Shown: piece by piece, positions 29,235 to 50,317 of the stretch
Position numbering within the stretch: position 1 is the first letter of the stretch
Layout: the number at the start of each line of letters is the position of its first letter
DNA from: a virus
Direction: 5' to 3' (one strand)
IMG/VR virus record: IMGVR_UViG_3300027861_000017
Span: 1-64,000 of that record
DNA: 64,000 bases
Position numbers and translations under genes: made by a program
Notes under the pieces: generated by a model
Seen by the model: only the letters and a program-made list of their open reading frames with translations
Told to the model about the DNA's origin: nothing
Databases searched by the model: none

Positions 29235-29744
29235 TCATTTTTTATCTCTCTCCTCTACCGCTTCATCTAGCTCTTCTAGAATTTCGGGGATGGGTCTGGT
29301 TGTTGTTTTAGGCGTATTTTCTTGTATTGGTTCACCATTTAATGTGGTTCTAGCTAGATTGTTTTTTATATATAGTTTATCTTTTATATATCCGAACACA
29401 CTGAAACCTAAAATACCTACACATGTAATTAGATAATAAGGTGATAAAATGGTGCAACATAATACATATACAAACAAACACAATAAAGCAATTAAACACC
29501 ACCTGATATCCCAATGTACCGAGTATCCTAAAAATAAACTTAATATCCTAGGCATATATTTATAATTTTTACAATTATTATTATGATTAATATGATCACA
29601 AGTTGAAATGGAATATAAATTCCATTTAGAATAATTACTGGCTGACCTTCTCATTTTGTTTTCTAGATTGGAAGGATGATAGCAATGACCCCAACCAGAA
29701 AGAAGTTCTTTATATTGACATGTGTCGCAATATACTTTAGTCAT
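29235..29744 (-). CDS. Cys-module plus 2-TM protein with conserved C-terminal helix tag
   Basis: YCDTCQY...CYHPSN; TM pair; IPEILEELDEAVEER. Confidence 0.75.
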   Translation of the reverse strand: MTKVYCDTCQYKELLSGWGHCYHPSNLENKMRRSASNYSKWNLYSISTCDHINHNNNCKNYKYMPRILSLFLGYSVHWDIRWCLIALLCLFVYVLCCTILSPYYLITCVGILGFSVFGYIKDKLYIKNNLARTTLNGEPIQENTPKTTTRPIPEILEELDEAVEERDKK

Positions 29745-30144
29745 TGTTACCCCTCTCTTCCACAGCCTCATCTAGCTCTTCCAAGATCTCAGGGATGGGG
29801 CGTTTGGTTTTATGTATACCCCTTAATCTATCATATATGTCATCGTTTGTCTCAGGCATACTATCATATAATTCCTTAAGATTATTGCTAAATGTATTTG
29901 TGGTTTTCTTTGGTGGAAAACTATTTTTGTGGACTTGGATTGTGAATTTATATATTTTTAGCATTAACCTAGGTGTTTTACGTAAACATGAATATGTAAA
30001 TACAAATGGCAGAAAGATCCAAAATAAAATATAACAATATGTTATTGGGCCTTCTGGATAGAAATCATCAGCATCCATTACCTCAACAGAAACCAAAGCC
30101 CATGCAAATAAATATAACACCAATGAAAATGCTAAAGTCTCCAT
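29737..30144 (-). CDS. Membrane protein with conserved C-terminal helix tag
   Basis: N-terminal TMs; IPEILEELDEAVEER. Confidence 0.75.
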   Translation of the reverse strand: METLAFSLVLYLFAWALVSVEVMDADDFYPEGPITYCYILFWIFLPFVFTYSCLRKTPRLMLKIYKFTIQVHKNSFPPKKTTNTFSNNLKELYDSMPETNDDIYDRLRGIHKTKRPIPEILEELDEAVEERGNND

Positions 30145-30692
30145 TACAGCTCCCTCCTATCTACTATACTCTCTACCCTATCTAGAAGAATAGGTAGTTC
30201 CTCTTCGGCCTTCGGGGAGGAGGGTGGGTTCATGTGAGAGGCTATCTCATCCCATATCGGGTCTTCGGTGGTAAACGGAGTGTTGTAGAGGTTGATCTTA
30301 TTGCAATATTTTTTGTAATTATTAAGATAATATTTAATAGTGAATATTATTCCTACCACCCAAATTATAAATGGTATAGGGGAAGAAGATTCGCAGGATA
30401 TTGCAACCATAGCTGCAAATGTTATCATAAAAGCAAGGATATTAAATACAACAAATGTATTGTCAACAATGTATGAACAACCATCACCCAATAATGAAGA
30501 TAATATATTATACCCCTTGTAATTAGGGCAATCGTTATTGCAGTTTAATTTAGTTCCATGGATACTAACCTTATTATATTGCACCCCAACTGAAGTTTTT
30601 CGTATCTTTACATTGCTATAATGACAGCATAGGCTACCACTGTATTCAGATTCATCGTAGTAGTAGCATTTATTGCAATATACGTCAGTCAT
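30144..30692 (-). CDS. Cys-module plus 2-TM protein with conserved C-terminal helix tag
   Basis: YCNKCYY...CCHYSN; TTEDPIWDEIASHM; LPILLDRVESIVDRR. Confidence 0.75.
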   Translation of the reverse strand: MTDVYCNKCYYYDESEYSGSLCCHYSNVKIRKTSVGVQYNKVSIHGTKLNCNNDCPNYKGYNILSSLLGDGCSYIVDNTFVVFNILAFMITFAAMVAISCESSSPIPFIIWVVGIIFTIKYYLNNYKKYCNKINLYNTPFTTEDPIWDEIASHMNPPSSPKAEEELPILLDRVESIVDRREL

Positions 30693-31225
30693 TACTCTTG
30701 TCTCCTATCTATCTCAATGTCTAGATCATCTAACATTTGAGGTATTTTATCTTTTTTGGGTTGCGGGTCGCTCATGTGTTGGGCTATATCATCCCAGATT
30801 GGGTCTTCAGTGGTGAAAAATTCAGTACTGTGTTGTCTTATTTTTTTATGATATTTAGCCTCAGAATTCATTAGACTAAAGAAAACAGATACTACAATTC
30901 CTATCCAAGTTAGGAGGGGTATAAAAGAGCCCAATCCACAAGTCATAGAAACAAAAAGAATTGATCCTGCAACCAGTAGAACGCTAAGAACCCCTATCAT
31001 GAAGTCTTGAGCTATAAAAGCTGCACCATCACCAAAAAAGGCTGAAAATATTGTACCCTTCTTATAGAGATCGCAACTATTATATCTATTTAATCCCTCA
31101 TATTCAATATCCAATGGCGTATATTCTATATCGATAGGTGTTTCTGTGATAACCACGTTTTTAAAATGTCTACACTCAGAATTATCACTTGAGTAATGAC
31201 AATCTTTACAATATACCTTAGTCAT
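30692..31225 (-). CDS. Cys-module plus 2-TM protein with conserved C-terminal helix tag
   Basis: YCKDCHY...CRHFKN; TTEDPIWDDIAQHM; IPQMLDDLDIEIDRR. Confidence 0.75.
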   Translation of the reverse strand: MTKVYCKDCHYSSDNSECRHFKNVVITETPIDIEYTPLDIEYEGLNRYNSCDLYKKGTIFSAFFGDGAAFIAQDFMIGVLSVLLVAGSILFVSMTCGLGSFIPLLTWIGIVVSVFFSLMNSEAKYHKKIRQHSTEFFTTEDPIWDDIAQHMSDPQPKKDKIPQMLDDLDIEIDRRQE

Positions 31226-31670
31226 TGTTATCTCTCCTATCTATCTCTGTATCTATCTTATCTAATAGATCAGGTATGATGTTTTTGGGTTGTTGCGGGT
31301 CGCTCATGTGTTGGGCTATTTCATCCCATATTGAGTCTTTGGTGGTCCAAAGTTTTGTCTTATCATCATGCATACTCCTTAGTTTAAATGCTATTGCTAT
31401 CCATATAGCAGCAAAAACTAGAATAGGCCATACAACTGAAATTACTGCTAGCAATATTAAATATATTAATGGTATTACACCTATAAAAAAGGCACAACAA
31501 TCACTGTCATTCTTATATCTAGCAAAACCCAAAGCTGTTAGGTAGTAAAGATCTTCTCTCTTAACCCACTTATTGGTCATGTAAATTGAATTCAATATCC
31601 AATGCGATAATAAAACTAATGGGATTGACCATAATATAAGTTTCATAATACTACAATATATGTCTAACAT
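31218..31670 (-). CDS. Membrane protein with conserved C-terminal helix tag
   Basis: TMs; TTKDSIWDEIAQHM; IPDLLDKIDTEIDRR. Confidence 0.75.
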   Translation of the reverse strand: MLDIYCSIMKLILWSIPLVLLSHWILNSIYMTNKWVKREDLYYLTALGFARYKNDSDCCAFFIGVIPLIYLILLAVISVVWPILVFAAIWIAIAFKLRSMHDDKTKLWTTKDSIWDEIAQHMSDPQQPKNIIPDLLDKIDTEIDRRDNND

Positions 31671-32020
31671 TATTCATCCCTCTCTTCTATAGCTTCATCT
31701 AACTCTGTTAGTTTAATACTGACTTTATCTTGTAGCTTAGTTAGTTTCTTTTTGTTGTTCTTAATCTTATTCCAGAATGATTCTTCGTCTGTGTCTATGG
31801 GAGTTCCATAGTCTATTGGTTCGGGTGGTTCGGGGTTCATTCTTTTAATTAATATATCAATATCATATGTAGTACAATGATTAAACCAAGCATCTTCTAT
31901 ACAAACCCAACGCTCATACCCATCAAAAGACTTCAAATTAAAATACAAATATCCTAAAAACCATTTCCTAATAGCATATTTCCCATCATTAAATCTAACA
32001 ATCTTCATCATCATCTCCAT
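31670..32020 (-). CDS. Hypothetical protein with conserved C-terminal helix tag
   Basis: VSIKLTELDEAIEER; exact start uncertain (MEMMMK). Confidence 0.65.
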   Translation of the reverse strand: MEMMMKIVRFNDGKYAIRKWFLGYLYFNLKSFDGYERWVCIEDAWFNHCTTYDIDILIKRMNPEPPEPIDYGTPIDTDEESFWNKIKNNKKKLTKLQDKVSIKLTELDEAIEERDE

Positions 32021-32058
32021 ATTGGGCCTGCCCCACACAGACCCAACACAATTAAGTA

Positions 32059-32223
32059 TCAATCCCTGGCTGCTATTATCTTCTCCAATTCTTCAAACAA
32101 ATCCTTTGACTTTCTTCTAAGTGGACTCTTAGCATTCCTTACACTCTTAAAGAAAGAAGATATAACCCCTGTACGTTTATTAACATAATAAAGTATCCCA
32201 CCTATTACAATAAGATAGAACAT
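32059..32223 (-). CDS. 54-aa single-TM protein with C-terminal helix tag (not in the ORF track)
   Basis: Hand translation: MFYLIVIGGILYYVNKRTGVISSFFKSVRNAKSPLRRKSKDLFEELEKIIAARD. Confidence 0.65.
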   Translation of the reverse strand: MFYLIVIGGILYYVNKRTGVISSFFKSVRNAKSPLRRKSKDLFEELEKIIAARD

Positions 32224-32224
32224 G

Positions 32225-32458
32225 TTACACCTCTACGTCTAGGATATTAGTATCAAGAAGCTTCTCATAATTAGCTACGAACTTGTCATAGATAGACTTA
32301 GCTTTGTTGATCTCAACTATCCTTGATTGGAGTAGAGCTATGACCTTCTCTTTTTTCTCACCAACCAGCTTTGTTCTGGCTTCTGCTTCGAGTGATCTTA
32401 CTGTTGCTGCCATTTCATCGAAACTACCTACTGTATCCCTTACTGTTCCTTCTGTCAT
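32225..32458 (-). CDS. Small coiled-coil protein embedded in the tagged-gene array
   Basis: All-helical 77 aa ORF with GAAGGGAG RBS. Confidence 0.6.
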   Translation of the reverse strand: MTEGTVRDTVGSFDEMAATVRSLEAEARTKLVGEKKEKVIALLQSRIVEINKAKSIYDKFVANYEKLLDTNILDVEV

Positions 32459-32459
32459 G

Positions 32460-32765
32460 TTAATTCTCCCTTCCTTCTAGTTTAAGGTTAATGTTATCCA
32501 AATCATCCTCTATGGAGTTATTGGGGTTATCTTTGTTGTCGTTCTTAACTCTCTCATCTATTATTTCATGCATGGCATATTCTATTCCATTGCACAAATG
32601 CAATTCTGCGTATTTATAATCAGTTTCAGGATGAGTATGAAAATAAGGGCATTCATCATTGCAATAGCCACCCCAGTCAGGATTAAGGCAAGCTTGCCTC
32701 TTGAAATAACTGCCCCTTTTAAAATATAACCAGCCTCCTTCATCTATCTTACATCTATGTGGCAT
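32460..32765 (-). CDS. Cys-containing protein with C-terminal helix tag
   Basis: CLNP...YCNDECPYF; IEDDLDNINLKLEGR. Confidence 0.65.
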   Translation of the reverse strand: MPHRCKIDEGGWLYFKRGSYFKRQACLNPDWGGYCNDECPYFHTHPETDYKYAELHLCNGIEYAMHEIIDERVKNDNKDNPNNSIEDDLDNINLKLEGREN

Positions 32766-32766
32766 T

Positions 32767-33003
32767 CTATCCCCTCCCTTCTACCTTCTTATCTACTATA
32801 TCTAAAGCTTCTTGTATTGTCAAGTTGTCTATGTGGTTTTTTATAGCTTGTTTATTGGTTATGGATTTATATGGTGGACGTTTAGACATTTCACATTCTT
32901 TAATGTAAATATCTTCATTAATACAAATGTAAATTGTATGCATTATTGCATAACCAATCAATAAACCTTCTGCAAATATCAATAACATGTCTAACTTTGT
33001 CAT
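32767..33003 (-). CDS. Single-TM protein with C-terminal helix tag
   Basis: N-terminal TM; IQEALDIVDKKVEGR. Confidence 0.65.
   Translation of the reverse strand: MTKLDMLLIFAEGLLIGYAIMHTIYICINEDIYIKECEMSKRPPYKSITNKQAIKNHIDNLTIQEALDIVDKKVEGRG
32797..32830 (-). repeat. 34-nt exact direct repeat, copy 1, overlapping a sigma70-like promoter
   Basis: Identical to 34025..34058; the minus strand reads TTGACA-17 nt-TATAGT. Confidence 0.8.
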
Positions 33004-33201
33004 TCCCCCACCTTCTTCCACACAGTACAAAGAGGGAAGATCTTACCATCGCCACCGAACCCAGAACGCTCAAGCATCATACATACTATCCTGGCTTCAT
33101 GGAGTGTATCATGGTAATCCCTGGTTTCTGAGAATCCATATTCATCTTTAACATTTGAGTCTTCTGGCCATAATGCTATTGATATATATTCCTTAGTCAT
33201 A

Positions 33202-33984
33202 TTATTCCCCCACCTTCTCTACTATCTTTCTAAATAAAGGCTCTGCCTCAAAGATGTTATTCATCATACTAGGGTTGTCTATGTTTGTAAAGAAGTATTT
33301 TAATTGGTCTATGTATATTTGGTCTATCACTTTTATATGGGTGGTGATTCCGGCTACCCTCAATAATCTAAGCTCTTGTGAGGAGGCTAAATCTAGCTCT
33401 ACATGAGTTGAAGTAGAATCTTCATGGGTCAGTGTGTATTTGCCGTGTTTGTCGAAGGTGGAGCCATCTATGGATTGTATGGGGCCAAATAGGTATTGAG
33501 TGTAATCCAATTCGTGGGATAATTCAAAAAGGACGTGATCTAGTTCTCTTTGGGAGGGCCAATTGTTAGAATTGGTTTTACAGACAATTTCTCTGCGTGA
33601 TGTTTCTTTTCCTGTTAGATGGGATTTGAGGTGGGTTATTACGTGGTTAAATCTAAGACAATATCCTATGTAGGTGATAACGCCTTCATCTTTAACTAAT
33701 TTCAATAATATATCTAAGTTTTTATCACTGACATCAACCGGCTTCTCTATAAAAAGCCTCTTTATACCTCTTTCGATACAGTATATGGCTGCCTCGATGT
33801 GTTTGTCTGAGGGGTAGCATATAAATGCGGCATCGAAGTGGGATAAGTCCACATTACTGTTGCCTTTTATATCTAGCTCCTTGACATCGTATAAACGGTG
33901 GTCATAGTTCTTCTGGATTAAACTCCAGTGTTTATTACCTATGCTGCCAAGACCGAAAAACAATATTTGCAAACTGTCATCCAT
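33202..33984 (-). CDS. Gfo/Idh/MocA-family oxidoreductase (PtmF/ElaA-like)
   Basis: GLGSIGNKH, FIEKP, GYCLRF, VLFELSHELDY. Confidence 0.85.
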   Translation of the reverse strand: MDDSLQILFFGLGSIGNKHWSLIQKNYDHRLYDVKELDIKGNSNVDLSHFDAAFICYPSDKHIEAAIYCIERGIKRLFIEKPVDVSDKNLDILLKLVKDEGVITYIGYCLRFNHVITHLKSHLTGKETSRREIVCKTNSNNWPSQRELDHVLFELSHELDYTQYLFGPIQSIDGSTFDKHGKYTLTHEDSTSTHVELDLASSQELRLLRVAGITTHIKVIDQIYIDQLKYFFTNIDNPSMMNNIFEAEPLFRKIVEKVGE

Positions 33985-34333
33985 TGGTTGTTATGTCCTC
34001 CCTTTGTTTTACCTTATTGTCTAATATATCTAAAGCTTCTTGTATTGTCAAGTTGTCTTTGTAGTTTTGGATTGTTTGTTTTTGGGAGGGTGGTTGTGTT
34101 GCTGGATTGATGTAATAATTAACCCTTCCGGTTGGGTGTCTTGGTGGTGGGTTGTTAGTTCTACCACTAATGAAAAAACACCCACATAACATTGAGAGTG
34201 GGGCTGAAGACAAAGATAGGGAAGTTATCAAAGCATACCAAGCAGGCTCCCATATATTACAAAGCGCAGTATAAGAAAATACAAATGTGAAAAGAGAAAT
34301 AGAACAAAGTACAATTACATCTTCTTTATTCAT
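33977..34333 (-). CDS. 2-TM protein with C-terminal helix tag
   Basis: TM pair; IQEALDILDNKVKQR. Confidence 0.65.
   Translation of the reverse strand: MNKEDVIVLCSISLFTFVFSYTALCNIWEPAWYALITSLSLSSAPLSMLCGCFFISGRTNNPPPRHPTGRVNYYINPATQPPSQKQTIQNYKDNLTIQEALDILDNKVKQREDITTNG
34025..34058 (-). repeat. 34-nt exact direct repeat, copy 2, overlapping a sigma70-like promoter
   Basis: Minus strand reads TTGACA-17 nt-TATATT, upstream of the oxidoreductase gene. Confidence 0.8.
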
Positions 34334-34528
34334 CTTTTATAATCTCCCATCCTATATATGGTCCTACCGTGATTGGGGTTTCTGCTTCCATATCATTATC
34401 CCATTCGGCGAAATAGTCTAACTCAAAATCATTAAACGCTTCGTTAGCTATATCTACTAATGAATCATCTGGGTATTTGTAGCTTTCGTTTAAGATGTAT
34501 TGGATAGCTCTTCTGGTGTTATTATCCA

Positions 34529-34726
34529 TTAGCAACCTCCACTACCACAAGATCTTGCAGGTGATCCATGACCACATCCACCACTACCACAACCCACTGT
34601 AGATGATTCAGTGTCTCTCTTTATGACATACTTCTCTTTCTTAGTCTTTTTAGCGTTTCCCTCTAGAGCATCCAACCTCTCCGTAATCCTTTGCAATGCC
34701 TCTGCTATTTCTTCTAATACTCCCAT
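34529..34726 (-). CDS. 65-aa peptide with helical N-terminus and Gly/Cys/Ser-rich tail (possible RiPP precursor)
   Basis: ...SSTVGCGSGGCGHGSPARSCGSGGC; directly downstream of the radical SAM gene. Confidence 0.6.
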   Translation of the reverse strand: MGVLEEIAEALQRITERLDALEGNAKKTKKEKYVIKRDTESSTVGCGSGGCGHGSPARSCGSGGC

Positions 34727-34728
34727 CT

Positions 34729-35559
34729 TTACCCCTCCGTATGTAATATTATATTTTTACCCCAATCGGCAGACAATGTTCCATCAGGATGAAATACACA
34801 TTCATAAACTAAATCTAATCCTTCTGAAGGTTCTGGTATAGATGCCTTCCATGTAACTGGCATGCCATCTATTATCATCGTAGATGACCTACAAACTGGG
34901 CATCTATTCTCAGAAATAACCTTATAGTCCTTGAACCAAAGCTCCTCATCTTGAGGCTCCAATGAGCAATCATCGTAATGCTGATGCCTAAAACATACAC
35001 TTGATATGCTAGTATATTTACAAGACTCAATATGGTCTTCTATATCAGATTTATCTTGGAATTGTCCAACTAAAACACAATTAGCATTAACCTTTATCCC
35101 ATTTTTATTGAAAAAGGTTGTAATATCCATTAAATCTTCTGTATTTAATATAGGAGACATAATATCAAAACATTTTGCATCTTCATAGCTAATGAATGAA
35201 TGTTTACTGATATTGATATAATCTATAACAATAAGATCTGGCCTCATTAAGCCATCTATGAAATTCTGTAAATGATATCCATTTGTAGTTAAAACAATTT
35301 TTCGGAACTTGTCTCTATATTTCAGTAGCATCTTTAAAACATATGATAGATATGTCGAAGCAGTAGGCTCTCCACCAGTTAAGCTTATCTGATAAAATTG
35401 GTCCGGCAATGATGATAATACCTCCTCCAATCTAGACATGTATGCTTCAAATGGCAATTCATAGGATCTCTCCCAGAAACAAAATCCACAATTGGCGTTG
35501 CAGGGTCCAGGGAGGATAATACTGAAGTTGGGATCTTCTATTGTTAGAATTTCGTCCAC
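34729..35559 (-). CDS. Radical SAM enzyme
   Basis: CNANCGFC (CxxxCxxC), SLTGGEP, LTTNG; GAGGAGG RBS before GTG 35559. Confidence 0.9.
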   Translation of the reverse strand: MDEILTIEDPNFSIILPGPCNANCGFCFWERSYELPFEAYMSRLEEVLSSLPDQFYQISLTGGEPTASTYLSYVLKMLLKYRDKFRKIVLTTNGYHLQNFIDGLMRPDLIVIDYINISKHSFISYEDAKCFDIMSPILNTEDLMDITTFFNKNGIKVNANCVLVGQFQDKSDIEDHIESCKYTSISSVCFRHQHYDDCSLEPQDEELWFKDYKVISENRCPVCRSSTMIIDGMPVTWKASIPEPSEGLDLVYECVFHPDGTLSADWGKNIILHTEG

Positions 35560-36086
35560 AAAACCTCCTCGACTGCATCGCATATTTGGCCCATGCAATT
35601 CCTCACAATAGCTTCCTCAAGTGCCCTTCTACCTTCAGGAGTTAATCTGTATATAACATCATCACCCATCCAGGATGGTGGAGTCTCTTTTGAAGCGTAT
35701 CCAGCTAAGACTAATTTCTCGAATCCAACTGAGTCTTCACAATCAAAGCTAGTACCAAACCAATTTCTGTCTGGACCGCTTATAGTGTGTTCCATTAAGC
35801 TTCTTTGGAAATTAGTGATTTTCATTAATCATCCTCCCACCATTTACTATTGGGTAAACCTTTAATGCGATGCTCGACTTCTCCCCAACCTATACACCCA
35901 TCCATGCCATCACCTATACCCTCACCGTAAATTTCTATTCCACCAACTGCATTCATAATATCAGCATCTGGATCACCTATACGAACCGATAAATAACCCC
36001 AACGATATCTAACATAAACAGGTCTATTCTCAAATGTTCTAAATTCCCATTGAGTGGGACAAGCACCACAAGTTTGTATTAATTCA

Positions 36087-36482
36087 TCAATTTTCATATA
36101 TATGCCCCACTACCTCTAAATCGTTAGTTTGATTACCAAAATATTCTATTTGGTTATGACCTGAGAATGGTACAAATATCCTCCATTCCTTATCTTTATT
36201 GACCCAATAGCCAAAAGCTCCTAGATGTTTTTCTACTTCGATTATCCAGTGGCTAAATCTTAGCTTATCACCTTGATATATTTTGTTACCGTTTTTATCA
36301 ATGATATCAATGAATTGCATAATTTCAGCTACGGCGGGGTAATAACCACCGTATTCATCTAGGCTTTCCTCTAATACAATAACTTTACCGTCCTCGATAG
36401 TTAATATAAAGTGGTCGTCATTGTAATCCCCATCTATCATCTCTTCGCCAGCCCACGCTCTAAATTCATTATCATCCATCAT
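36087..36482 (-). CDS. YopX-family protein
   Basis: FRAW, IMQFIDIIDKNGNKIYQGD, LEVVGHIYEN. Confidence 0.75.
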   Translation of the reverse strand: MMDDNEFRAWAGEEMIDGDYNDDHFILTIEDGKVIVLEESLDEYGGYYPAVAEIMQFIDIIDKNGNKIYQGDKLRFSHWIIEVEKHLGAFGYWVNKDKEWRIFVPFSGHNQIEYFGNQTNDLEVVGHIYEN

Positions 36483-37764
36483 CCCCTCCACTACGCTATG
36501 TCATCATCGTTGTCCAATTCCAACAGATTTTCAAAAAACGGAGTTAATTTTTTAAAAAGTTTATATATTGCCTCAGATTTATTCATAGCACTGATTATAC
36601 ATTCGTGGCCAGCTTGACCTTCTGACAGTCTTTCCATTTCATAAAATATGTCATCAGTTAATTCATCTAGATCTATTTTGTATTTAGTATAACTCATTGA
36701 TCTCCTCCCTTAACTATGGTCCTATATTGTATATGGCATCTAAGTAGTCTATCTATGTGCATCCTATCTGAACAATAATGAACATCATCATAGAAGTCCT
36801 CCACAGATGTTTCTATATGAAGAAGCTTGTAATTAAAGCCCCCTTCCCCCATATTAACAAAGTCTGCTATAGCTGCACTGTCCCATCCCATATCAATAAG
36901 ATACCTTCTTAAATACAACTCCCATAATCTTATAAAGTCAGGATCTGCTTTAGAAGCCCATGAAATAACCTCATCTATGAAATCAGATCTACTTTTCTCT
37001 TCGGCTCTTCTTTGATAGTAATATTCTATCGTTTCATAGTTTTCTGGCTTATCACCTTCTATAGCTTCTATCATGCATTCTTCACATACTTCCTCATCAC
37101 CCTTACGAATGAACTCAGCTTCATCTTCACCGCACCATTCACACTTACTCATCACTATTCCCCTTAGTTAAAAACCTTTCACCCCATACACCAGCAAATA
37201 TACCCCATGTGAAATAGAAAGCTGGCCATAACTCTACCTCAGTTCCTCTATCTATAAACCATGCTAGAAACAAAGATCCGAAAATTATTGATAGTCCTAT
37301 GATACTATTCTTCATCATGTTTTCCCCTAAAAGCCCCAATAATCAGATTCTAAAACTATATCCTTGGGACCAAGCGGTTGTGTTGTTTTATATGAATTAG
37401 TGTTAACTATAATTCTATCCCATTTATTACATTCCATATTGGAAATTAATATTCTGTCATCTGGATCATTTTTAGCTTTTACTTCTTCAAGTGTTAAGAC
37501 TTCACCACCTAAATAATACATACCACTCCTTTCTGTCTCCTTGCTATCAAGCTCGTAATCCTCTCTGGCCCTAGTAGAAAAACGAAAACCATAAGGTAAG
37601 GCTCCGTATCTCTCTTTAATGTTTTTAGACATCTCAATAGCGGTGTCGATGTTCCAAGACTCGATTGGTTTCGTGGTTTCTTCGGATACAAAAGAACCTG
37701 GGCTTAAAAATGTTACAAAATGTTTTTCCATGTTAATCTCCTAAAGTATAATATTATCAATAAG

Positions 37765-37846
37765 TTGGAGCGGAGGGATTTGAACCCTCAATCCTTTCGG
37801 CGCAGAGGCTTAAACCCTGCGTGTATACCAGTTCCACCACGCTCCA
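37765..37846 (-). tRNA. tRNA-Leu(TAA), CCA not encoded
   Basis: Acceptor UGGAGCG/CGCUCCA, D-loop GG, anticodon stem CAGGG/CUCUG with loop UU-UAA-GC, long variable arm, GAGGG-UUCAAAU-CCCUC, A discriminator. Confidence 0.9.
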
Positions 37847-38850: not shown

Positions 38851-38879
38851 ATTCTCCCATATGATCATATCATTGTCAA
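38851..38879 (-). promoter_or_regulatory. sigma70-type promoter
   Basis: TTGACA-17-GAGAAT with extended TG. Confidence 0.55.
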
Positions 38880-39965: not shown

Positions 39966-39995
39966 AATTTATCATGATTGTTAGATGATTGTCAA
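39966..39995 (-). promoter_or_regulatory. sigma70-type promoter overlapping the terL stop codon
   Basis: TTGACA-18-TAAATT with extended TG, followed by AAGATAAAAACTTAAGGAG. Confidence 0.7.
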
Positions 39996-41657
39996 TCCTT
40001 TTTTTGCGTATTTGGTACCAGTTTTTTGAGTTCTTAATATTCTACACATAGCGTTTAAAGTAGCGGAGACACCATCGTATTTATTTGCGTCAATCTCTTT
40101 ATAAGGGAATACGTTATCATTTTTGTCATGCCTTCCACAGGTATTGCCAATCATCCATTTGAAAACCGGATCACCATTATGATGAATCTTATTCTCGAAC
40201 ATAACGGCATCTAGCTCTTTCATAGGTTCAGATAGAAACTTAACAACCTGTGGTATTTCTACTACAGTTATTTTTAATTTCTGTAAAGTTTGAACTAATT
40301 GAGCGGCATTCCATGGATCGGTACAAACTTCTTGTATTTGATATTCCTTACCTAATTCTAATAAATCTTCCAATAACACTTCATAGTCTACCATACTACC
40401 CATTGTGGTTGTGAGCCAACCTTCCTTAACCCACGTTTGATAATGAGTCTTATCTTCTCCTTCTGTGGCATCTTCTGGTAAATAGTTCTTAAGAAATGCA
40501 TAGTAGTCATCATCACGCTTAAATAGTATAGCCATTGATGTTATATCTAGCTTGCTAGATAAATCCAAACCTACCCAACAATCTTCGCCTTTAAAATCTT
40601 CCATTTTCAAATCTTTATCACCACACTTATCCCATGCAACAATATTGAAATACCCTTTTCCAGAATTCATCCATTGATTCAGATGCTTACACCTATTTAT
40701 ATTCTGTTTTGAAGCTCTCTGCATCGCTTCGGTATAGCGTGGTTTTAGCTTATCTTCCAATATGGAAATGCCGAAATTAGGGTTAGCCTTTTTCCACATT
40801 TCAAAATCAGTCCAATCATCTTCCTTATCCAGTGTGTAAATGATGCCATATATGTTTTCGTTATCTATACTGCCATCTAATATTTTACAAATCTGATTTC
40901 TCTTATCATAACAAGGAGAGCTAGTATCAACTCCTGCTGTCGTGATAACTAACATTAATGGTGACTCCCTAGATAGCATCCCAGTGATCATAGAATCATA
41001 AAGTACCGGTTTCTTGTGCTCATGAAATTCATCGCAGATCGCAAGGCTTGCTGAAGCACCGTCACCTGGGTCACCAATTAAAGGCTCGAATTTACTACCA
41101 TTTTCGATACAACACAGATTTGATGCATTGGATAATATGTCATAATGCTCCAAGAACCCTTCGGCTCTTTCTGCCATCCACTTGGCTGGCTGGAATACAC
41201 ACCAGCTCTGTTTTTCGCTTGTCGCGCCGGAGTAAATCTCAGCACCTATCTCACCATCCTCTACAAACATATATAAACCAATAGCAGCGGCTAATATTGA
41301 TTTACCGTTTTTTCTAGGTATTTCTAAATACGCTTCACCAAATCTTCTAGAACCATTACTTGTTTTAATCCAACCAAACATAGTTGTTACATTAAATATT
41401 TGCCATGGCTCTAATTTAAGTAATAATTTTTGTTTTGCCCATAACCCCTTTACATGGGGTAACCTCTCAATAAAAGCGCATATCTTGTCTGCTAAATAGG
41501 GTACAAAATAATAAGGAGCGTCTTCGTCGTTCCAACGCTCCAAATCATCTTTCTGTCTTTGGCATGCTTGTTTAACCTGTTCGCATGCTGGTATTTTTTC
41601 GCTCAATATGTCTTCTATATATTGATTCGCAATAGCAACATAATCTTTATCAGCCAT
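39981..41657 (-). CDS. terL: Terminase large subunit (Terminase_1/HK97 type)
   Basis: LEPWQ, IPRKNGKS Walker A, ICDEFHE Walker B, ITTAG, KANPN, VGLDLS, TDPWNA, KYDGVSA. Confidence 0.96.
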   Translation of the reverse strand: MADKDYVAIANQYIEDILSEKIPACEQVKQACQRQKDDLERWNDEDAPYYFVPYLADKICAFIERLPHVKGLWAKQKLLLKLEPWQIFNVTTMFGWIKTSNGSRRFGEAYLEIPRKNGKSILAAAIGLYMFVEDGEIGAEIYSGATSEKQSWCVFQPAKWMAERAEGFLEHYDILSNASNLCCIENGSKFEPLIGDPGDGASASLAICDEFHEHKKPVLYDSMITGMLSRESPLMLVITTAGVDTSSPCYDKRNQICKILDGSIDNENIYGIIYTLDKEDDWTDFEMWKKANPNFGISILEDKLKPRYTEAMQRASKQNINRCKHLNQWMNSGKGYFNIVAWDKCGDKDLKMEDFKGEDCWVGLDLSSKLDITSMAILFKRDDDYYAFLKNYLPEDATEGEDKTHYQTWVKEGWLTTTMGSMVDYEVLLEDLLELGKEYQIQEVCTDPWNAAQLVQTLQKLKITVVEIPQVVKFLSEPMKELDAVMFENKIHHNGDPVFKWMIGNTCGRHDKNDNVFPYKEIDANKYDGVSATLNAMCRILRTQKTGTKYAKKGLTII

Positions 41658-42169
41658 TATAAGTCCCCCCAACCCTTATCTTTCTTTTTAGGGTTGTTGA
41701 CTTTAATACGTGACCTAGCTGATGGACTGAGGCCCAACTCAGCACCAATCTTTCTCATCTGTTCGAAGGCTTTGTTGGAAACCCACAAATATGGTGAAGT
41801 TATGACATTGCCACCTGATTTTGTCTCCTCTATAGTTCCATCTCTTTTAGTTTTAGTGGTAACTTTTTGACCAGTTATAGATAGGGTTCCCTTCTCCAGA
41901 ACTTTTTTTTCTGCTGCCACCCATCTGCTATAAGCTATACAGTACGCTTCTAGTAATGCGTGGTCCATCTCACACAAAATATCCACATTTAATAGCTCTA
42001 CAGTTATTCTATCCCACTCTTCCTTAGCCAACTTATCATTGGCTATCCATTCTGGACAGTCAGGGGCCTTGATCTCTGGCTTTGGCTCGTTTTCATTAAG
42101 GGGTCTGCCCCCTGGATTGTTCATTAATTTTTTTATAGCCGTTGGTAATGGCTTTCGTCCTTTTGTCAT
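41657..42169 (-). CDS. terS: Terminase small subunit (P27 family)
   Basis: GRKPLPTAIKKLMNNPGGRPLN...PEWI...LEAYCIAYSRW...ELGLSPSARSRI. Confidence 0.92.
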   Translation of the reverse strand: MTKGRKPLPTAIKKLMNNPGGRPLNENEPKPEIKAPDCPEWIANDKLAKEEWDRITVELLNVDILCEMDHALLEAYCIAYSRWVAAEKKVLEKGTLSITGQKVTTKTKRDGTIEETKSGGNVITSPYLWVSNKAFEQMRKIGAELGLSPSARSRIKVNNPKKKDKGWGDL

Positions 42170-42237
42170 TATTCATATCCTTTCCCCTCCATTTCTTGTT
42201 AATATTATACCATCCCCATGGTAATGAATTATTAAAT

Positions 42238-43401
42238 TTAAAATTTAAAGCCAAGTTGAAATTCGCCGTCCATCTTATTGTTTTTACGATTATTATCTAT
42301 ACCCCACAAAGGTTGTAAATTAGATAACATCCAACATCTTTTAAAATTTAAATGTTCTGGTTTTGTGAAATCAAAAAAACTTTGAGGTGTTATATGGTCA
42401 ATTTCCCAACCATTTTTGCCATAATTATCCCAGTTCATGCCATCTGTAAACTGTTTTTCTAGATGGTTCCTTAGTTCATCTAAAGTATAACCAACTAAAT
42501 CTTCCCAATGTCTTCCGGCTTTATTGCCATGTAAAGAGGCTCTAATAGCGTTAGAAATATTGGCATTCAACCTATTGGATGGGATTAACCTTGCTTTCTT
42601 GTTATATTCACTCTTATATTTTCTCTGACTTGGGGTTTTTCTATATTCTTTTTGATATGCACGTCTACGCTCTATAACATCTTGCCTAGAATTGTATTCT
42701 TTTCTAAAATTCTTTTTGTGTTCTATAACTTCAGGCCTTTGATAATATGCCTCAATGCGCTTTATAGTATCTGGCATTCTACGATATTCTCTTTTATGTA
42801 ATTTCTTTTTCTCTTTTATGTCATCTCTAGAATTATGTTTCTTATCATATTCTCTCTCTAATTTTTTAGTTTCCGGTCTACTCCTATATTCTTTTCTATA
42901 TTCACTTCTTCGCTTTTTAACTTCTGGGTCATTATGATACTTATCACGACAGTCAATGCACCTCGAACTTAGTCCATATTTTTTTGTTTTATCTTTATTG
43001 AACGCTCTAGCGGGTTTATTTTCTTCGCATCCAGTACATTTCTTATAATCACATTTAATGTCACCACGTTTTTCCTTTTTATATTTCTCCCTATATTCTT
43101 TACATGATTCCCTTGAACAATCCTTACATTTATTATCAAGCCCGTCTTTCGTGCTTCTATTATTATAAAACTCTTTTAATGATTTTTCATTATCACATCT
43201 ACTGCATATTTTATGTCCATCTCTTGGTTTTATTTTCTTCTTTACTGTACGTGTTCCATTCTTGAGTTCTTTTTGATATCGTTCATAATATTCCCTCTTA
43301 CATTCCTTGCAGGTGGTACTTAATTTATCCTTTTTATTTATATCTTTATTAAATTCTACTAAATCCTTAACCTCTTTACAATTGCCACACTTTTTACCCA
43401 T
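42238..43401 (-). CDS. HNH-type (EndoVII-like) endonuclease with CxxC Zn repeats
   Basis: Three KxCxxC...F...CKxC repeats; HLEKQFTDGMNWDNYG..WEIDHITP...NLQPLW..DN. Confidence 0.8.
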   Translation of the reverse strand: MGKKCGNCKEVKDLVEFNKDINKKDKLSTTCKECKREYYERYQKELKNGTRTVKKKIKPRDGHKICSRCDNEKSLKEFYNNRSTKDGLDNKCKDCSRESCKEYREKYKKEKRGDIKCDYKKCTGCEENKPARAFNKDKTKKYGLSSRCIDCRDKYHNDPEVKKRRSEYRKEYRSRPETKKLEREYDKKHNSRDDIKEKKKLHKREYRRMPDTIKRIEAYYQRPEVIEHKKNFRKEYNSRQDVIERRRAYQKEYRKTPSQRKYKSEYNKKARLIPSNRLNANISNAIRASLHGNKAGRHWEDLVGYTLDELRNHLEKQFTDGMNWDNYGKNGWEIDHITPQSFFDFTKPEHLNFKRCWMLSNLQPLWGIDNNRKNNKMDGEFQLGFKF

Positions 43402-43412
43402 ATACCCTCCAC

Positions 43413-43886
43413 TCAAACATACTTACTATACATTCTCATGCCTCTAATAACTCCATGACCACCATTAAATTTAAAATAATACTGCTCATTATCATCCCTC
43501 CGTGAAAATAACTTAACATCTGGCAAATCTTTAATCATTTCCAACAAAAATGCGTTAAGACCATGACCATCAAATTCAAGATATCCTTCTTTATCGCACT
43601 TATGACAAATCTTAACACTGAACTCTCCATGACAAACTGGGCATGATCTTGAATCATATAGTAATTCGTAGGGAGGTAAATCAACCCATTCCCCATCCTG
43701 ATCAGGCTGCCATTGAAGCGTATTTTTGATTGGAGCTTCACGGGTAACGCCCTCAACAGTATCAAGTGGGACCCTTATTATGATACACCCATTCGTAGCA
43801 CAAGCCCATCCATCCATAACAAACGGGTAGTTAAATTTAAAATCCTCATGCTTGTTGCAAAAGCTTTGTAATAAATCCTTATCCAT
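43413..43886 (-). CDS. Hypothetical protein, paralog of 45930..46526
   Basis: Shared LLQSFC, CAT[ND]G, GEWVDLPPY, EFDGHGLNA.LLE.IKDLP.VKLFSRRD. Confidence 0.7.
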   Translation of the reverse strand: MDKDLLQSFCNKHEDFKFNYPFVMDGWACATNGCIIIRVPLDTVEGVTREAPIKNTLQWQPDQDGEWVDLPPYELLYDSRSCPVCHGEFSVKICHKCDKEGYLEFDGHGLNAFLLEMIKDLPDVKLFSRRDDNEQYYFKFNGGHGVIRGMRMYSKYV

Positions 43887-44777
43887 TATTCATCTCCTTA
43901 TTGTTTATTTTATCTCCCAATCCCCACACCCCTCCTGCCCAGCTCCAAAATACCCACCATCCTTCCCAGCTATAGAGCATGTTCCATGGCTCCATTGTAT
44001 TTTGTAGAAGTTTTTGCAACTATCGCATCTTTTAATCTCTTCACTCATATTGATTTTATCCTTTTTACTTGAGATTCCAACAACCATCTTTCACCATCGA
44101 AAACATATCTAAATAAATATGTTGGCATAAATGGTAATTTTATTTTTTTGGATATCTCAAAATACACATCTCCTATATTAGCTTCTTTATTTTCGAATCT
44201 AAATTTATTACTAGGATATTGTTTTTGAATAAAAAATATCTCCTTTAACCTCTTTATCATTCTTCTACCTCCTTAAAACATCCATAATGAGAATTATAAT
44301 CAGTATCTCTTTTTATCCACCATCCCCATTTGTCACATGTGGTACCTACTATGCTGTCCATTATATCGGAATAATATTTACAGTTACTGCACTTCTTTTT
44401 ATTGGAGGTTACAGCACTCTCTTTATTCATCTCTTATCTCACTCTCATAAAGAGCTTGTTCTAGCTCCTCAACTCTATCTTCTAATTCCCTCACTCGTAC
44501 AAATGCAACATCTGGTCGATGTCCAAACATCTTAGCTATATCAGCAAGCCTTTGATCTCCACCACAATATTTACAATTCTTACTGATCATATCCTCTGGA
44601 TCGTCTAGGTATTCTTTGTGGGTCTTATTTAACTCGATGTATCTCCTCTCTAGACTGAGACAAGATACTACGGCTTGACGTTTACTCTCAAATAATTCTT
44701 CAAATTCTATATCGTACATATTATTTCCTTTTTTTATTGGAGGAGGTAAGCTTTCTTTTTAATTGATACTCTCCTCC

Positions 44778-45179
44778 TTAACGGTTGGATTTTAAAACAC
44801 TCAATATCCCATCAAGATCTAACCCAACATGAGCCCATCCACCTCTTTTATTTATAAGTTCAGCTACAGCCAATAAAGATTTATATTGTCCTTTGTCGAA
44901 TCCATCAGGCACCACCTGGAATAGACAGAACTTATCTTTAGTAAAAACGCTATCCACAGCCTCTGCTATGCTAAAAACTCCAGTCATCTCTTTTGTTATT
45001 ACATATAAATGGAAATAACATTCCTCTTTCTGCCTGTATTCCTCTTCCTGACATTCTGGAGTCCAATCATCAACAACGGGATTAAAAAAATCTATCTTGT
45101 TGGCCTCTAAAAATGGTATTAGCTCATCTCTCCAAGTACTATTATTATATGTCCCACCTAAAAATACTTTCTTATCCAT
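44778..45179 (-). CDS. Nucleoside 2-deoxyribosyltransferase-like protein
   Basis: VFLGGT..STWR, FFNPVVDDW, MTGVFSIAEA. Confidence 0.75.
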   Translation of the reverse strand: MDKKVFLGGTYNNSTWRDELIPFLEANKIDFFNPVVDDWTPECQEEEYRQKEECYFHLYVITKEMTGVFSIAEAVDSVFTKDKFCLFQVVPDGFDKGQYKSLLAVAELINKRGGWAHVGLDLDGILSVLKSNR

Positions 45180-45929
45180 GTATCTTCTCCTCTATGAGTG
45201 TTTATTAAACTTCCTTTTTATAGTTAAACCCGTAGTCTTTCCAATGTTCACCATCCACAACATCTTCCCAGTCTTTCACCTTCTTGACATGCCATTTTTC
45301 ATCATTATTTACATCAACTGATGCAATCCCCATTACGAAAGGATCGTTTTTTATGGTTGCGCCAACTAAATCTGGTCGGTCATCCACTACAACAGAAAGA
45401 CCACAAAAATCCATAATCCCCAATTTATCTCTTGTAGCCAAGGAAACTATATCTCCAACCTCTAGCTTGTCTCCATAAGCATCAACTATGGTTGTTTTTA
45501 TACCACACTCACCATGCTCACATTCCCCTGAATATACTCTCATCTTCTCCATACCTTCCCCCTCATCAATAAATAAACCTATTCTTCCACCACATTATAA
45601 CCGCCCACCAATATTGAATCTTCCCACATATCGTTGCAGTCCAGCTATACCTATGCTCGTGATGTACAAAGTCGGAGCATGTCCAATAACCTATGCGCTT
45701 TCTTTTCTTCATTCCCTCATCCCCATTATAATTCTAACAATATCTTTACCAAAATGATCTTCTAAATCTTCTATTCCTTCTTTTAATTTATTTAATTCAT
45801 ACTCTATCTTCCATAAATCTTCGGCTATTGTTTTCGAAAACTCTACATCTAACTTGAAAAGTATATGGTCCTTCCATGCTTCACCATATCTATCTACTAA
45901 ATAATCTTCAGCTTCTATGGAGTTCATCT

Positions 45930-46526
45930 TTATCCCCTCATCCCCATTATAATCCCATGCCCACCATCAAACCTGAAATAAAAATGCTGTTTCTCATCCC
46001 TACGTGAAAATAGTTTAACTCCTGGCAGGTCTTTAATCTTTTCTAGTAGGAGTGCATTAAGCCCATGACCATCAAATTCTATCCTTGAATAATCCACAGG
46101 GTACATATCTCCATCACCATCACACCTTCCACAAATATCACCATCACCAGGGATAATGCCTTCACAATCACAATATTTACAATCGCATTCATAGCTGTTG
46201 AACTCTGAATCCAACTCAACATACCCGTCTCCGTCACATTCAGGACAGATATTTATCTTACCCACACCTTGACAAGCATAGCATACCTCTTTATTGGGTA
46301 ATTTGTAGGGAGGTAGATCAACCCACTCCCCTTCGATACTTGGTTCCCATTGTAATGTTATAATGCTTCCTACTATATGAGCATAGTGCCAATCATATTG
46401 CCTTGGTATTCTTATTGCTATTTGTCCATCTGTAGCGCATATAAAATCGTCAATAATAAATAGTTCTTGAAATGGACTTGAAGCCGACTTACTGCAAAAG
46501 CTTTGTAATAGGTATTTATTCATCAC
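45930..46526 (-). CDS. Hypothetical protein with DnaJ-like CxxCxGxG Zn-finger insertion
   Basis: CYACQGVG, CPECDGDG, CKYCDCEG, CGRCDGDG. Confidence 0.7.
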   Translation of the reverse strand: MMNKYLLQSFCSKSASSPFQELFIIDDFICATDGQIAIRIPRQYDWHYAHIVGSIITLQWEPSIEGEWVDLPPYKLPNKEVCYACQGVGKINICPECDGDGYVELDSEFNSYECDCKYCDCEGIIPGDGDICGRCDGDGDMYPVDYSRIEFDGHGLNALLLEKIKDLPGVKLFSRRDEKQHFYFRFDGGHGIIMGMRG

Positions 46527-49500
46527 TCCTCCTCTTGATCAATAATAATTACTGTCTCAAACGGTGGCATCGGTCCCATATAGTAATGCTGTCCTAGAGT
46601 AGACATTAAATCCCACATTTGCCAAGTTGACCATCCTTCCTCATCTTCTTTTTTTGGTTTATAAGTTTTCATATCCCCTAAAATACCAAGGGAACCACTA
46701 ACAAATTCTTCATGCTGTTCCTTAAGTATCTTACGTCCTCTTTCTGTAAGCTTAACTTTAACGTAATGATTTATATTAAATTCCATCACTCCTCCCTCTC
46801 CTCAGCTTCAATTAGTCTTTTAGCCCATGCAAGATACTCGTCAATGTGTAGACGTGGATCGGCTTTTATGTCAGGTAGTCCTGGTTTATCGTCCATAATC
46901 TGCTCGATAGTTTCAGGCTTAATGGGTGGATCTATGATCAAAACATCTTTATTCTGATCAAATGCCTTACATGCCTCTGTAAACCCATCTACGAATGAAT
47001 TGAAATACAAATCCCCCTTATTAGGTATACCATACCTAAGCCTGTCAGGGTCAATAACTCGCACTAACCTGTCTAAACCATCAGCTGTATAATCGTTATA
47101 GCTCTCCCCTAAGTCTAGATACACATTATCAATATCTTCTGGTACCTCCCCAAACCATATAATAGCCACTCTTTTTGTTTTAGGCTCTTCTTTTACCTCT
47201 TTAAAGATATGATCTTTTTTACAATCAGCTTCTTCACATAGCCTTGCTGCTGCTGCATCGCAATGATTACACGGTAAATCACCAACATAATACTCATGCT
47301 CAAAAACCTTCCCACCTATCTCTACTCTATCTGATTCTTTCATATCTCCCTCTTATTCCTTACTTAGTATATATTTACAAAGTGATATTATAGTTTCTTC
47401 AGTATCAGATAGAGGATCATCGGCTGATCCTAATACACGCTTTCTTTGTCTGTATAAAACATAGCAATCCTTAAATAAAATGTTATAATGTGAATCGCTT
47501 TCATGTACTTTGTCTATTTCCATGTATACCTCTTATCTTTTTTTATTGGAGGAGAAGTTGTTCTCTATGTAGCTTTTGTCTATTACTGTTTAACTACGGC
47601 AACAAAAAACCATGCTATAGCCCACACTACACCAATAATGCATACACATTCTGGCCAACCCATATTGTTTCTCCTATTGCGCAACCTGCCGTTGCATAAA
47701 CTTCCTATACTCTTCCTGAAAGACTTCCACATCATACACCCCGCCATCTAACTCATACAAGGCACTCATAACATCTTCTGCCTTCTCAGATGTAGAGCTA
47801 ACTTCACCCTCTATGCCCATCTCCATCATTAGTTCGTTTATTGCCATGTATAGATATATTAGTTTTTCTCTGCTTATTTTACTATCTGGTAATCTTGGAT
47901 GCATATTTTACCCTCCTAACTATTATCAACCAACATTTTCAATACCTTCTTCATCTTGTCATCTTGTAGCGCATTTTTTATTAAAGATATTGTTTCCAAT
48001 AACCCTTCCATTCTATAGGTATTAATACCTTCTAGGGCTTTATTTATTTCCTGTATATCTCTTTTAAGAGGTTCTAGGCTCTCTCTAACTTTATCCACCC
48101 TTTTATACATAGATGGCATTTGGCTGTCCATCTCTTCAAACATAGCATAAGAAGACTCTAATTGCTCATCCAAGGCTTCCCTATATGCCTTTTTGATCCT
48201 TGCAGACCACCCTTTAAATATAACAACATCCTCATCTAACGCTTCGAGGCCTGTTTCTATATCTCGTTTTGATTTTGCTATATACTGTATAACTATCTCG
48301 CCAGCTTCTACATCATCCTCAAACGATTTGAATTTATCAGCTATTTCCTTTGGTACGTATATGTGTTCTTTTTCACCCATTATTCTTCCCCCTCTTCATC
48401 TATTAATTCTATGCCTACTAGGGATCTATTTCTATATGTTCCTTTCTCCCTCAACCACATCTCCATAAAATGAACCTCGGTAAAAGTTACATGCTCTTCT
48501 CCCATGCCAAACCCATCTGGAGTGCAACACCTTTCTACACATATAAATTTAATCATTATTCTTCCCCTTAATACAATAATAAAAACGACCTAACTCCCAT
48601 TACGACCATAAGAACGCCAACACCACAAAAGGTTATTGAAAATACAATATCCCAGAACATCATTCCTCCTCCCCATAGTAACAATCTAGTAAGTCTTTTA
48701 TATCCTCTTCATCCCATCCATCATACTCTAAAGCTAATTGAGTTTCCTGACGATCACCCTCTTCAGATTCCCACTCACAACCACCGTCCAAAAATTGAGG
48801 GCAATAGATACCACAATCTCCATTAATGCCCACTACTTCGCATACTGACATTCCAGCCGGATAATTACCATCTATAAAAGCCATAGCGTTACCACAATTA
48901 TCTACGTCTTCCATAGTACGTATAGGTTTATACCCGCCATTAGCAGCAGCTTCCCCATAACCATCATACACTTCCTTCCTAGACTCTATGGCAGTTTCTT
49001 TCAACTCTCTTATGGAAGCCTTTTCTGGGAGTTTATCTAGGGCTATTTCCTTAGCTCTTTTATCTAATTCATTTCTAGGACTAAATGTCATTATTCTTCC
49101 CCAATCTTCATAATAAGTTCTTTAAAAGTTGGTGCTGTGGTAACACTCCATGGGAAGCCACTGACAAGTGTTACGTCACCATCATCATTCATTTCTATTT
49201 CATAGCCATCCCTTATTAGAATACCCATCTTCTTAATCCCAGCCTCCATAATGTCAGACTCACTGCGTAACTTACTATAACCTTTCACACAATCCTTAAG
49301 ACAACTATTACATATTTCAAGTTCTTCTATTTCTTCACTCATTATTCTTTCTCCCCTACCATTTCAATCAAACTTAATAATGTTGATGCAGATTCTAATT
49401 TTGTTCCAACTTCGTCTATTAAATATACATACCGTTTATTAACGAAATAATTCATCTCACACTCTATGGTTCTGTCATCAAACCCAGTCATGAATTTATT

Positions 49501-50068
49501 TAATTTCTCAATTCCAGCCTTTATAATATTAAGCTCGGAGCGCAACCTGTCATTCTCTTTTATGGACTCAACATTACATATCTCACATATACCGCTTAGA
49601 TCTCTTTCTTCACTCATTATTATCCTCCTTCTCAAATCTTTCAAGATCATCTTCCCATGCACAATATTTATCGTAGAAATCTTCTACTGAGTTAAACCAT
49701 TCTGTTCTTGGTCTCCTAGCTATTAGCTCTTCATGAGATTCTTTTTTTATTATTGGAGGGGACACATACACACATCTTAATCCGTCATCTGGATGAACAT
49801 CTATGGTAACTCGATCTGGATGTATAAGATCTACATATCCATCAATATAATATGGGTTTAATTTAACATCATCTAATGGTTTCAGTATCTTTAAATTCTT
49901 TGATAATTTAACCTTCTGGATAATCCAGTAAGCATTTTCTAATTTCGGTTCTTCCCTATCCTCTTTCTGTTTCATTGTTGCTAATTGATCTATGCATTTC
50001 TCACACCTTCCACATGAAAAATTCCCGACACAGATATCCCCACTGTATTGATTTTCATCTTTCATAAT

Positions 50069-50317
50069 TTATCCCTCCCTACTATCTAGAGCTTCATCTA
50101 ATTCTTCCAAGATCTCAAATATTGAACGCCTAACTCTTGGTTTATATAGTTGCTCTTTTCCCTCCATATCCGGTATAAACTGAACTATGGGTTTCCCCGC
50201 CCTCAACTGACAATCAAAAGGTTCACCATCATGGTAGGGAGTTGGCTCCGACCTATGGCCCCTACAGCCACCTCTCTCACAAAAATCTTTTTTATTACAA
50301 ACATACCTCATAATCAA
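50069..50317 (-). CDS. Cys-containing protein carrying the same C-terminal helix tag
   Basis: IFEILEELDEALDSR. Confidence 0.65.
   Translation of the reverse strand: MIMRYVCNKKDFCERGGCRGHRSEPTPYHDGEPFDCQLRAGKPIVQFIPDMEGKEQLYKPRVRRSIFEILEELDEALDSREG

Follow-up and report, generated by a model that had tools for sequence, protein, structure and literature searches.

Short terminal docking helices that bring many client proteins to one hub are known from ESCRT-III, where MIM helices pair with MIT domains, and bacteria have comparable clamp-binding and SSB-tail motifs. The cargo-loading peptides of encapsulins and the encapsulation peptides of microcompartments are likewise portable terminal peptides or helices, placed behind a linker, that lead to one destination. 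In T4-type phages, promoter-early stem-loop (PeSL) cassettes mediate the modular shuffling of small genes in hyperplastic regions (PMC2839356, PMC4122927); they are intergenic, non-coding motifs that combine a promoter with a terminator. Here we describe an element of marine phage DNA that resembles these systems in part. The window analyzed is the first 64 kb of the 91,135-bp linear IMG/VR record IMGVR_UViG_3300027861_000017 (estimated completeness 81%), in which 11 small genes end in the same 15-residue motif, hereafter the tag. The tag is a portable helix, selected at the protein level and restricted to this phage lineage, that probably lies in the cytoplasm.

An earlier annotation made without database searches (the sequence-only reading) had placed C-terminal tags on 11 proteins. 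A regular-expression search in all six frames recovered the same set: exactly 11 copies, all on the minus strand and all 1–7 codons before a stop. Most of the tagged genes form an array, inside which an untagged gene is also found, and the last tagged gene (50069) lies ~16 kb away, immediately downstream of a DUF5662 gene. The genes starting at 30144, 30692, and 31218 have a box in common ahead of the tag, and two tags belong to a subtype designated group B. The genes are as follows.

29235..29744, minus strand: tagged gene 1, 169 residues from MTKVYC; Cys-rich domain, two transmembrane (TM) segments, and tag at 29247-29291
29737..30144, minus strand: tagged gene 2, 135 residues; two TM segments and tag at 29752-29796
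30144..30692, minus strand: tagged gene 3, 182 residues; Cys-rich domain, two TM segments, box, and tag at 30153-30197
30692..31225, minus strand: tagged gene 4, 177 residues; Cys-rich domain, two TM segments, box, and tag at 30701-30745
31218..31670, minus strand: tagged gene 5, 150 residues; about three TM segments, box, and tag at 31233-31277
31670..32008, minus strand: tagged gene 6, 112 residues from MKIV; soluble beta/alpha domain and a single long C-terminal helix, with the tag as its last part (31679-31723)
32059..32223, minus strand: tagged gene 7, 54 residues; N-terminal hydrophobic stretch and tag at 32065-32109
32225..32458, minus strand: untagged 77-residue helical protein within the array
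32460..32765, minus strand: tagged gene 8, 101 residues; Cys-rich soluble body and tag at 32469-32513
32767..33003, minus strand: tagged gene 9, 78 residues; one TM segment and group-B tag at 32773-32817
33977..34333, minus strand: tagged gene 10, 118 residues; TM body and group-B tag at 34001-34045, followed by seven more residues
50069..50311, minus strand: tagged gene 11, 80 residues; Cys-rich soluble body and tag at 50078-50122

The motif is not similarly common at the C-termini of other small open reading frames (ORFs). A hidden Markov model (HMM) of the last 35 residues scored the 11 tagged ORFs at 34–51 bits and none of the other 208 above 6 bits, and a terminal [DEGRS][DEGRS]R was found in 3 of the 124 untagged genes that have a close downstream gene. 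These two results rule out a general Shine-Dalgarno (SD) artefact, which was retained for codons 13–15 only. With a much looser pattern, no further C-terminal copy was found in the whole 91 kb, including the 27 kb outside the window. Glu is enriched in the last six residues of the proteins of this phage generally (15% vs 7.9%). The 54-residue ORF at 32059-32223, which was outside the ORF track used for the sequence-only reading, is a real gene: its counterpart in the relative L006 has 50 identical codons, two synonymous changes, and two non-synonymous changes.

The motif as first described is real, but the conserved unit is longer than 15 residues. In the alignment it spans ~35 residues and consists of a short helix with a near-invariant Ile ~20 residues upstream, a Pro/Lys-rich basic linker, and the tag. 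The consensus from 42 tagged proteins with 25 distinct tags is [IVL]-[PSQ]-[ED]-x-L-[DE]-x-[LVI]-[DE]-x-x-[VIL]-x-x-R. Conservation among the 25 is highest for Arg at position 15 (25/25), followed by Leu at position 5 (23/25) and Asp or Glu at positions 6 and 9 (22/25 each). Hydrophobic residues form a stripe at positions 1, 5, 8, and 12, with acidic residues alongside at 3, 6, and 9. On average, the tag has a net charge of -2.4 and the linker one of +1.2. Net charges of the subtypes span -6 to +1, several subtypes coexist in each genome, and 0–10 variable residues follow the tag Arg.

Structure prediction with AlphaFold2 (AF2) gave helical tags. For the protein of gene 30692, the model contains a TM hairpin (residues 73-98 and 102-134; predicted local distance difference test score [pLDDT] ~90), a helix at 142-152, a loop at 153-159, and a tag helix at 160-176 (pLDDT ~91). 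In the soluble protein of gene 31670, the whole module is predicted as a single helix of ~37 residues (75-111) behind a well-predicted 57-residue domain. Hydropathy indicates TM-like segments in 8 of the 11 carriers and a soluble character for the remaining 3. Lys or Arg residues follow the last TM segment in most carriers; together with the Cys-rich N-terminal domains, which are probably zinc-binding, and the existence of soluble carriers, this suggests that the tag probably faces the cytoplasm. Searches of Pfam and PHROG returned no match better than E 0.007 for the carriers or the module, a sequence profile search of the PDB returned only noise, and a Foldseek search of the PDB and searches of the ESM Atlas gave nothing usable.

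The module resembles the MIM, clamp-binding, and SSB-tail elements in being a C-terminal helix or peptide of ~12–17 residues that is carried by differing proteins behind a flexible linker and has conserved hydrophobic and charged positions. It differs from them in its motif, in its occurrence on small phage proteins that are mostly membrane proteins, and in the variable residues after the motif. The MIM1 consensus, (D/E)xxLxxRLxxL(K/R), does not fit the tag, in which hydrophobic residues are spaced 4-3-4 and the Arg comes three residues after the last of them. The MIT domain (PF04212) is absent from the phage genome.

Evidence that the tag is maintained as a peptide comes from genes 29235 and 29737, two neighbors whose bodies are unrelated and whose last 17 residues are identical. 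Their tags, at 29247 and 29752, differ at 10 nucleotides over 9.7 synonymous sites (proportion of synonymous differences, pS, 1.03), and the proportion of non-synonymous differences (pN) is 0. A copy of this subtype in L006 has many synonymous changes and one conservative Glu-to-Asp replacement. The comparison of dN/dS covers the window, L006, and L007. The tag peptide is thus under strong purifying selection, and the earlier proposal of protein-level conservation despite divergent codons holds, with synonymous saturation and a pN of 0.

Synonymous divergence between the tags at 29247-29291 and 29752-29796, which are 505 nt apart, exceeds the ~0.75 expected at saturation. The excess may reflect selection against DNA identity of neighboring direct repeats, because such repeats would delete the intervening gene. 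Codons of the form NTA make up 79% of those at tag positions 5, 8, and 12, as against 55% of Leu, Ile, and Val codons genome-wide, an effect that is weak and confounded by paralogy; a nucleotide-level "TAGA" periodicity was rejected on these grounds. In the whole genome, ATA accounts for 62% of Ile codons and TTA for 41% of Leu codons, and the phage encodes a tRNA-Leu(TAA) at 37764-37846.

Portability was assessed by BLASTP comparison of the 42 tagged proteins after removal of their last ~40 residues. The bodies fall into 15 classes, 9 of which are represented among the 11 proteins of the window, and include membrane hairpins and Cys-rich or soluble domains. The description of the tagged proteins as otherwise dissimilar is therefore largely correct, except that 29235, 30144, and 30692 are clear paralogues sharing a Cys-rich domain and a TM hairpin, and others have sub-modules in common, such as an 87-nt repeat shared by 32767 and 33977. 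A possible further relative of the Cys-rich domain lies outside the array.

28599..28859, minus strand: stand-alone Cys-rich module with neither TM segment nor tag; similarity is weak (E 0.005 for a single comparison)

The group-B subtype is found on six body classes, and the Cys-rich/TM class carries four subtypes. One subtype on several unrelated bodies and one body class with several subtypes, added to the synonymous saturation, bear out the idea of a portable module acting at the protein level. A profile search of 1.84 billion representative proteins gave 14 matches at E ≤1e-3. Twelve are small proteins of this phage group, each matching at the extreme C-terminus; the remaining two, long matches made up of several stretches, were regarded as noise. 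A word-indexed search added more tagged proteins, all from a few seawater contigs. Scans of IMG/VR and GTDB genomes with the group-B alignment gave no match, and the tag is absent from the distant relatives of the large terminase (TerL) L001-L005, L008, and L009 (39–49% identity). The untagged 77-residue ORF at 32225-32458 has relatives (68–92% identity) only in this phage lineage, on contigs that agree in length with contigs bearing tagged genes. This distribution is compatible with the candidate partner role suggested for it earlier, and is no proof of that role.

Comparison of related arrays revealed patterns of gene gain, loss, and exchange at the module. The L006 array is syntenic with that of the window except for an additional tagged gene and the absence of counterparts to 30692 and 29235. 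Identity between the two along the array alternates between 92–100% and 60–80%; the low-identity blocks are gene bodies, and identity returns to 95–98% at the tag ends. In L007, an extra tagged gene lies between the counterpart of 33977 and the oxidoreductase gene, and it has inherited the seven-residue tail that follows the 33977 tag in the window. P0039 is a chimera with an N-terminus of the 33977 type and the C-terminal 78 residues of the L007 extra gene. Contigs from the same seawater run contain joints at tag positions (31232/30701 and 34040/32773) and a paralogue fusion (30285/31194), which are hints only, as these are k=31 contigs in repeats. Across these alignments, insertions, chimeras, and mosaic breakpoints coincide with the module.

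Module DNA also carries signals for expression of the next gene, which the sequence-only reading overlooked. Codons 13–15 of the tag form AGGAG, GGAGG, or a similar purine run that is the SD sequence of the next cistron in 9 of the 11 copies. The Arg codon, always AGR, ends 7–12 nt before the next ATG in 9 of the 11. Only the 32059 tag keeps its Arg without an SD role, the next start being 56 nt away. A second signal, also missed at first, is found in group B, where the tag DNA reads as a near-consensus sigma70-type promoter, in this subtype only. The two best sigma70-like sites of the region (11/12 positions, spacing 17) fall precisely on the tag-coding sequences of 32767 and 33977.

32795..32823, minus strand: sigma70-like TTGACA-17-TATAGT in the tag DNA of gene 9
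34023..34051, minus strand: sigma70-like TTGACA-17-TATATT in the tag DNA of gene 10, with a Gfo/Idh/MocA oxidoreductase gene downstream

All six group-B DNA copies retain the -10 hexamer and five of them the -35 hexamer, and the spacer is variable. No -35/-10 pair was found in tags outside group B, so that a promoter-like site is present in 2 of the 11 copies only, and no terminator-like site was found at the tags. Similar sigma70-like sites occur near 89–91 kb, where the transcription direction starts. Beyond the window, near-consensus TTGACA-17-[AG]ATAAT sites (minus strand, 89346-91031 and 75181-75209) form a cluster at the point from which the single direction of transcription proceeds and are probably the early promoters.

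These signals, and the breakpoints at the modules, would fit a junction cassette that operates at the DNA level, supplying SD sequences, some promoters, and homology for exchange, with the peptide as a tolerated by-product. We regard this as improbable. It is contradicted by synonymous saturation with all 15–17 residues unchanged in subtype 1, and only the 3 of 124 other close junctions counted above resemble even the end of the tag. The 32059 tag retains the motif with no SD to provide, promoter-like pairs are confined to group B, and no common RNA fold, consistent hairpin, or SD sequestration was found at the 11 junctions (fold z-scores -2.1 to +1.6). The cassette reading nevertheless describes real extra constraints on tag DNA. 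The element is similar to PeSLs as a repeated short sequence at the junctions of small accessory genes that carries expression signals of the next gene (an SD sequence and, in group B, a promoter), and it is the site of insertion, deletion, and replacement breakpoints in L006, L007, P0039, and the contig joints. It differs from them in lying inside ORFs, being translated and selected as a peptide, lacking a stem-loop, and having a promoter in one subtype only.

We judge the chances to be about even that the tag is an interaction handle for one common, putative partner; the binding, the cytoplasmic location, and the identity of the partner are what we infer. The tag would be the terminal helix of the ~35-residue module, in which a short helix and a Pro/Lys-rich linker precede an amphipathic, mostly acidic helix of 15–17 residues, and the module would define a multigene family specific to this marine phage group. 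The hydrophobic stripe (1, 5, 8, 12), with its acidic flank (3, 6, 9), would bind a common cytoplasmic partner, either phage-encoded, such as the 77-residue helical protein of the array, or a host protein. Binding would gather membrane-anchored and soluble bodies in one location. Its position at gene ends places two further loads on the DNA of the module: codons 13–15 serve as the SD sequence of the next cistron and, in group B, codons -2 to 8 make up a sigma70-type promoter. The repeated module DNA would in addition provide a recombination joint for the insertion, loss, and exchange of bodies.

A stronger version can be proposed only tentatively. In it, one dedicated reader (the 77-residue protein or a host hub at the inner face of the membrane) would grip all tagged proteins like a socket, and bodies would be swapped onto a constant plug that carries the expression signals of the next cassette. 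If so, the same 45 nt would be peptide, SD sequence, and promoter, and the lineage would evolve by exchanging effector bodies on that plug.

Several observations weigh against a common handle. As codons 13–15 double as an SD sequence, the "invariant" Arg and positions 13–14 are confounded with ribosome binding. The 5' half of the group-B tag is identical in DNA between the two copies of the window and coincides with the promoter hexamers, and part of group-B conservation may be regulatory or the result of recent gene conversion. Membrane topology was derived from crude hydropathy and a positive-inside reading. Finally, each subtype is kept almost residue for residue though the subtypes differ at non-motif positions, a pattern more in keeping with pairing specific to each subtype, or with a helix buried on every side, than with a single common groove.

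The main rival takes up the last of these points. Here the tags would bind each other in a hetero-oligomeric coiled-coil bundle, perhaps with the 77-residue protein, forming one membrane-anchored complex of interchangeable subunits. The 1-5-8-12 spacing fits a heptad or hendecad register, and the ~37-residue helix predicted for the 31670 protein is of a suitable kind. Several stable subtypes that differ in charge (-6 to +1) occur together, every one of them preserved in both the window and L006, and all helix faces are conserved within a subtype, which somewhat favors tag–tag assembly. Membrane proteins account for 8 of the 11 carriers, and their genes are side by side. Self-association would be disfavored by the net acidity of most tags, with acidic residues beside the stripe, and 15 residues are short for a stable coiled coil. 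On balance, tag–tag assembly seems rather unlikely.

The C-terminal position of the tag also brings a signal for stability or timing into consideration. C-terminal tails read by one protease or adaptor are an established principle, exemplified by the ssrA tag, the SspB tail, and the lambda CII tail with FtsH. By analogy, the tag could be a degron or adaptor tail for a host AAA+ protease (FtsH, Lon, or ClpXP) that gives possibly toxic small proteins a common short lifetime; FtsH naturally acts on membrane proteins, of which there are many among the carriers. The 0–10 variable residues after the Arg indicate that the signal does not depend on a free and defined C-terminus, and the motif is unlike any known degron class. 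We consider a degron quite unlikely.

Under the common-handle reading, finding the reader of the tag would place a dozen proteins at once. Most small accessory genes of phages are unexplained orphans, and a handle shared by ~15 unrelated bodies gives experiments a way into an entire group of such genes. One DNA stretch is measurably constrained as a peptide, as a ribosome-binding site, and, in one subtype, as a promoter, and it is a recombination joint as well. An element combining peptide, SD sequence, and promoter would amount to a coding equivalent of the PeSL cassettes, which are non-coding.

The phage has a GC content of ~36%, almost every gene on the minus strand, and DNA that is found in seawater metagenomes. 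Its closest terminases have only 39–49% identity, and a DNA-level search of INPHARED phages gave no match. The packaging and head genes identified in the window are listed below.

6038-7363: major head protein, the sole HK97-type protein found
7368-8678: head protease
10557-12629: portal, with a C-terminal MuF-like head-morphogenesis part fused in the same ORF (residues ~572-689)
39981-41672: large terminase

Between the portal and large terminase genes is a ~27-kb accessory island (12630-39980), an unusual location for such genes. It contains nonulosonic-acid-type sugar genes, an RtcB ligase (23185-24264), a radical-SAM gene, small membrane proteins, many small ORFs, and the tag array.

The sequence-only reading had compared the tag to encapsulin cargo peptides, microcompartment encapsulation helices, or a capsid signal. 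The likeness lies in a portable terminal peptide or helix behind a linker on unrelated proteins. As for microcompartments, where a terminal amphipathic helix of ~18 residues set off by a poorly conserved linker is expected, AF2 predicts such a helix (160-176) behind a loop (153-159). The location of the array between the terminase and portal genes would also speak for cargo of a capsid or other protein shell. However, the carriers are mostly membrane proteins (8/11 with predicted TM segments), whereas encapsulin cargo consists of soluble enzymes, and there is no sequence similarity to the known peptides. No shell is encoded: the Linocin_M18 encapsulin family (PF04454) gave no match in the 91-kb record and did match in control genomes, and the genome lacks the bacterial microcompartment (BMC) shell domain (PF00936). 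What separates terminase and portal is a 27-kb accessory island, with its sugar-pathway genes, RtcB, and internal promoters, and not a head module. The analogy is thus unlikely to apply, and a cargo signal is very unlikely.

A neighboring gene raises one more alternative. At 34529-35598 (minus strand), the radical-SAM gene (Radical_SAM and Fer4_12) is 2 nt upstream of a 65-residue peptide with a helical N-terminus and a Cys/Gly-rich tail. Both adjoin the array, and the N-terminal helix of the peptide loosely fits the motif through position 12. The tag could then be a recognition ("follower") peptide for the radical-SAM or another modifying enzyme acting on Cys-rich bodies, a reading that we find barely plausible. 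Several carriers have no Cys-rich part, and the 65-residue peptide scores 1.3 bits with the tag HMM. L007 has tagged genes and lacks the radical-SAM/peptide pair, which excludes the radical-SAM link; being absent there, the pair behaves as a separate cassette.

The island contains a second, independent pair of genes with a shared tail. Neighboring small proteins encoded at 26501-26887 and 26872-27231 (minus strand) have hydrophobic N-termini and finish in a different conserved sequence, Pro-Asn-His-Thr-His-Glu-Trp-Glu and two more residues. A 392-residue ORF (42238-43416) that lies immediately upstream of the small terminase combines Lar-like and repeated endonuclease VII/HNH-type zinc modules.

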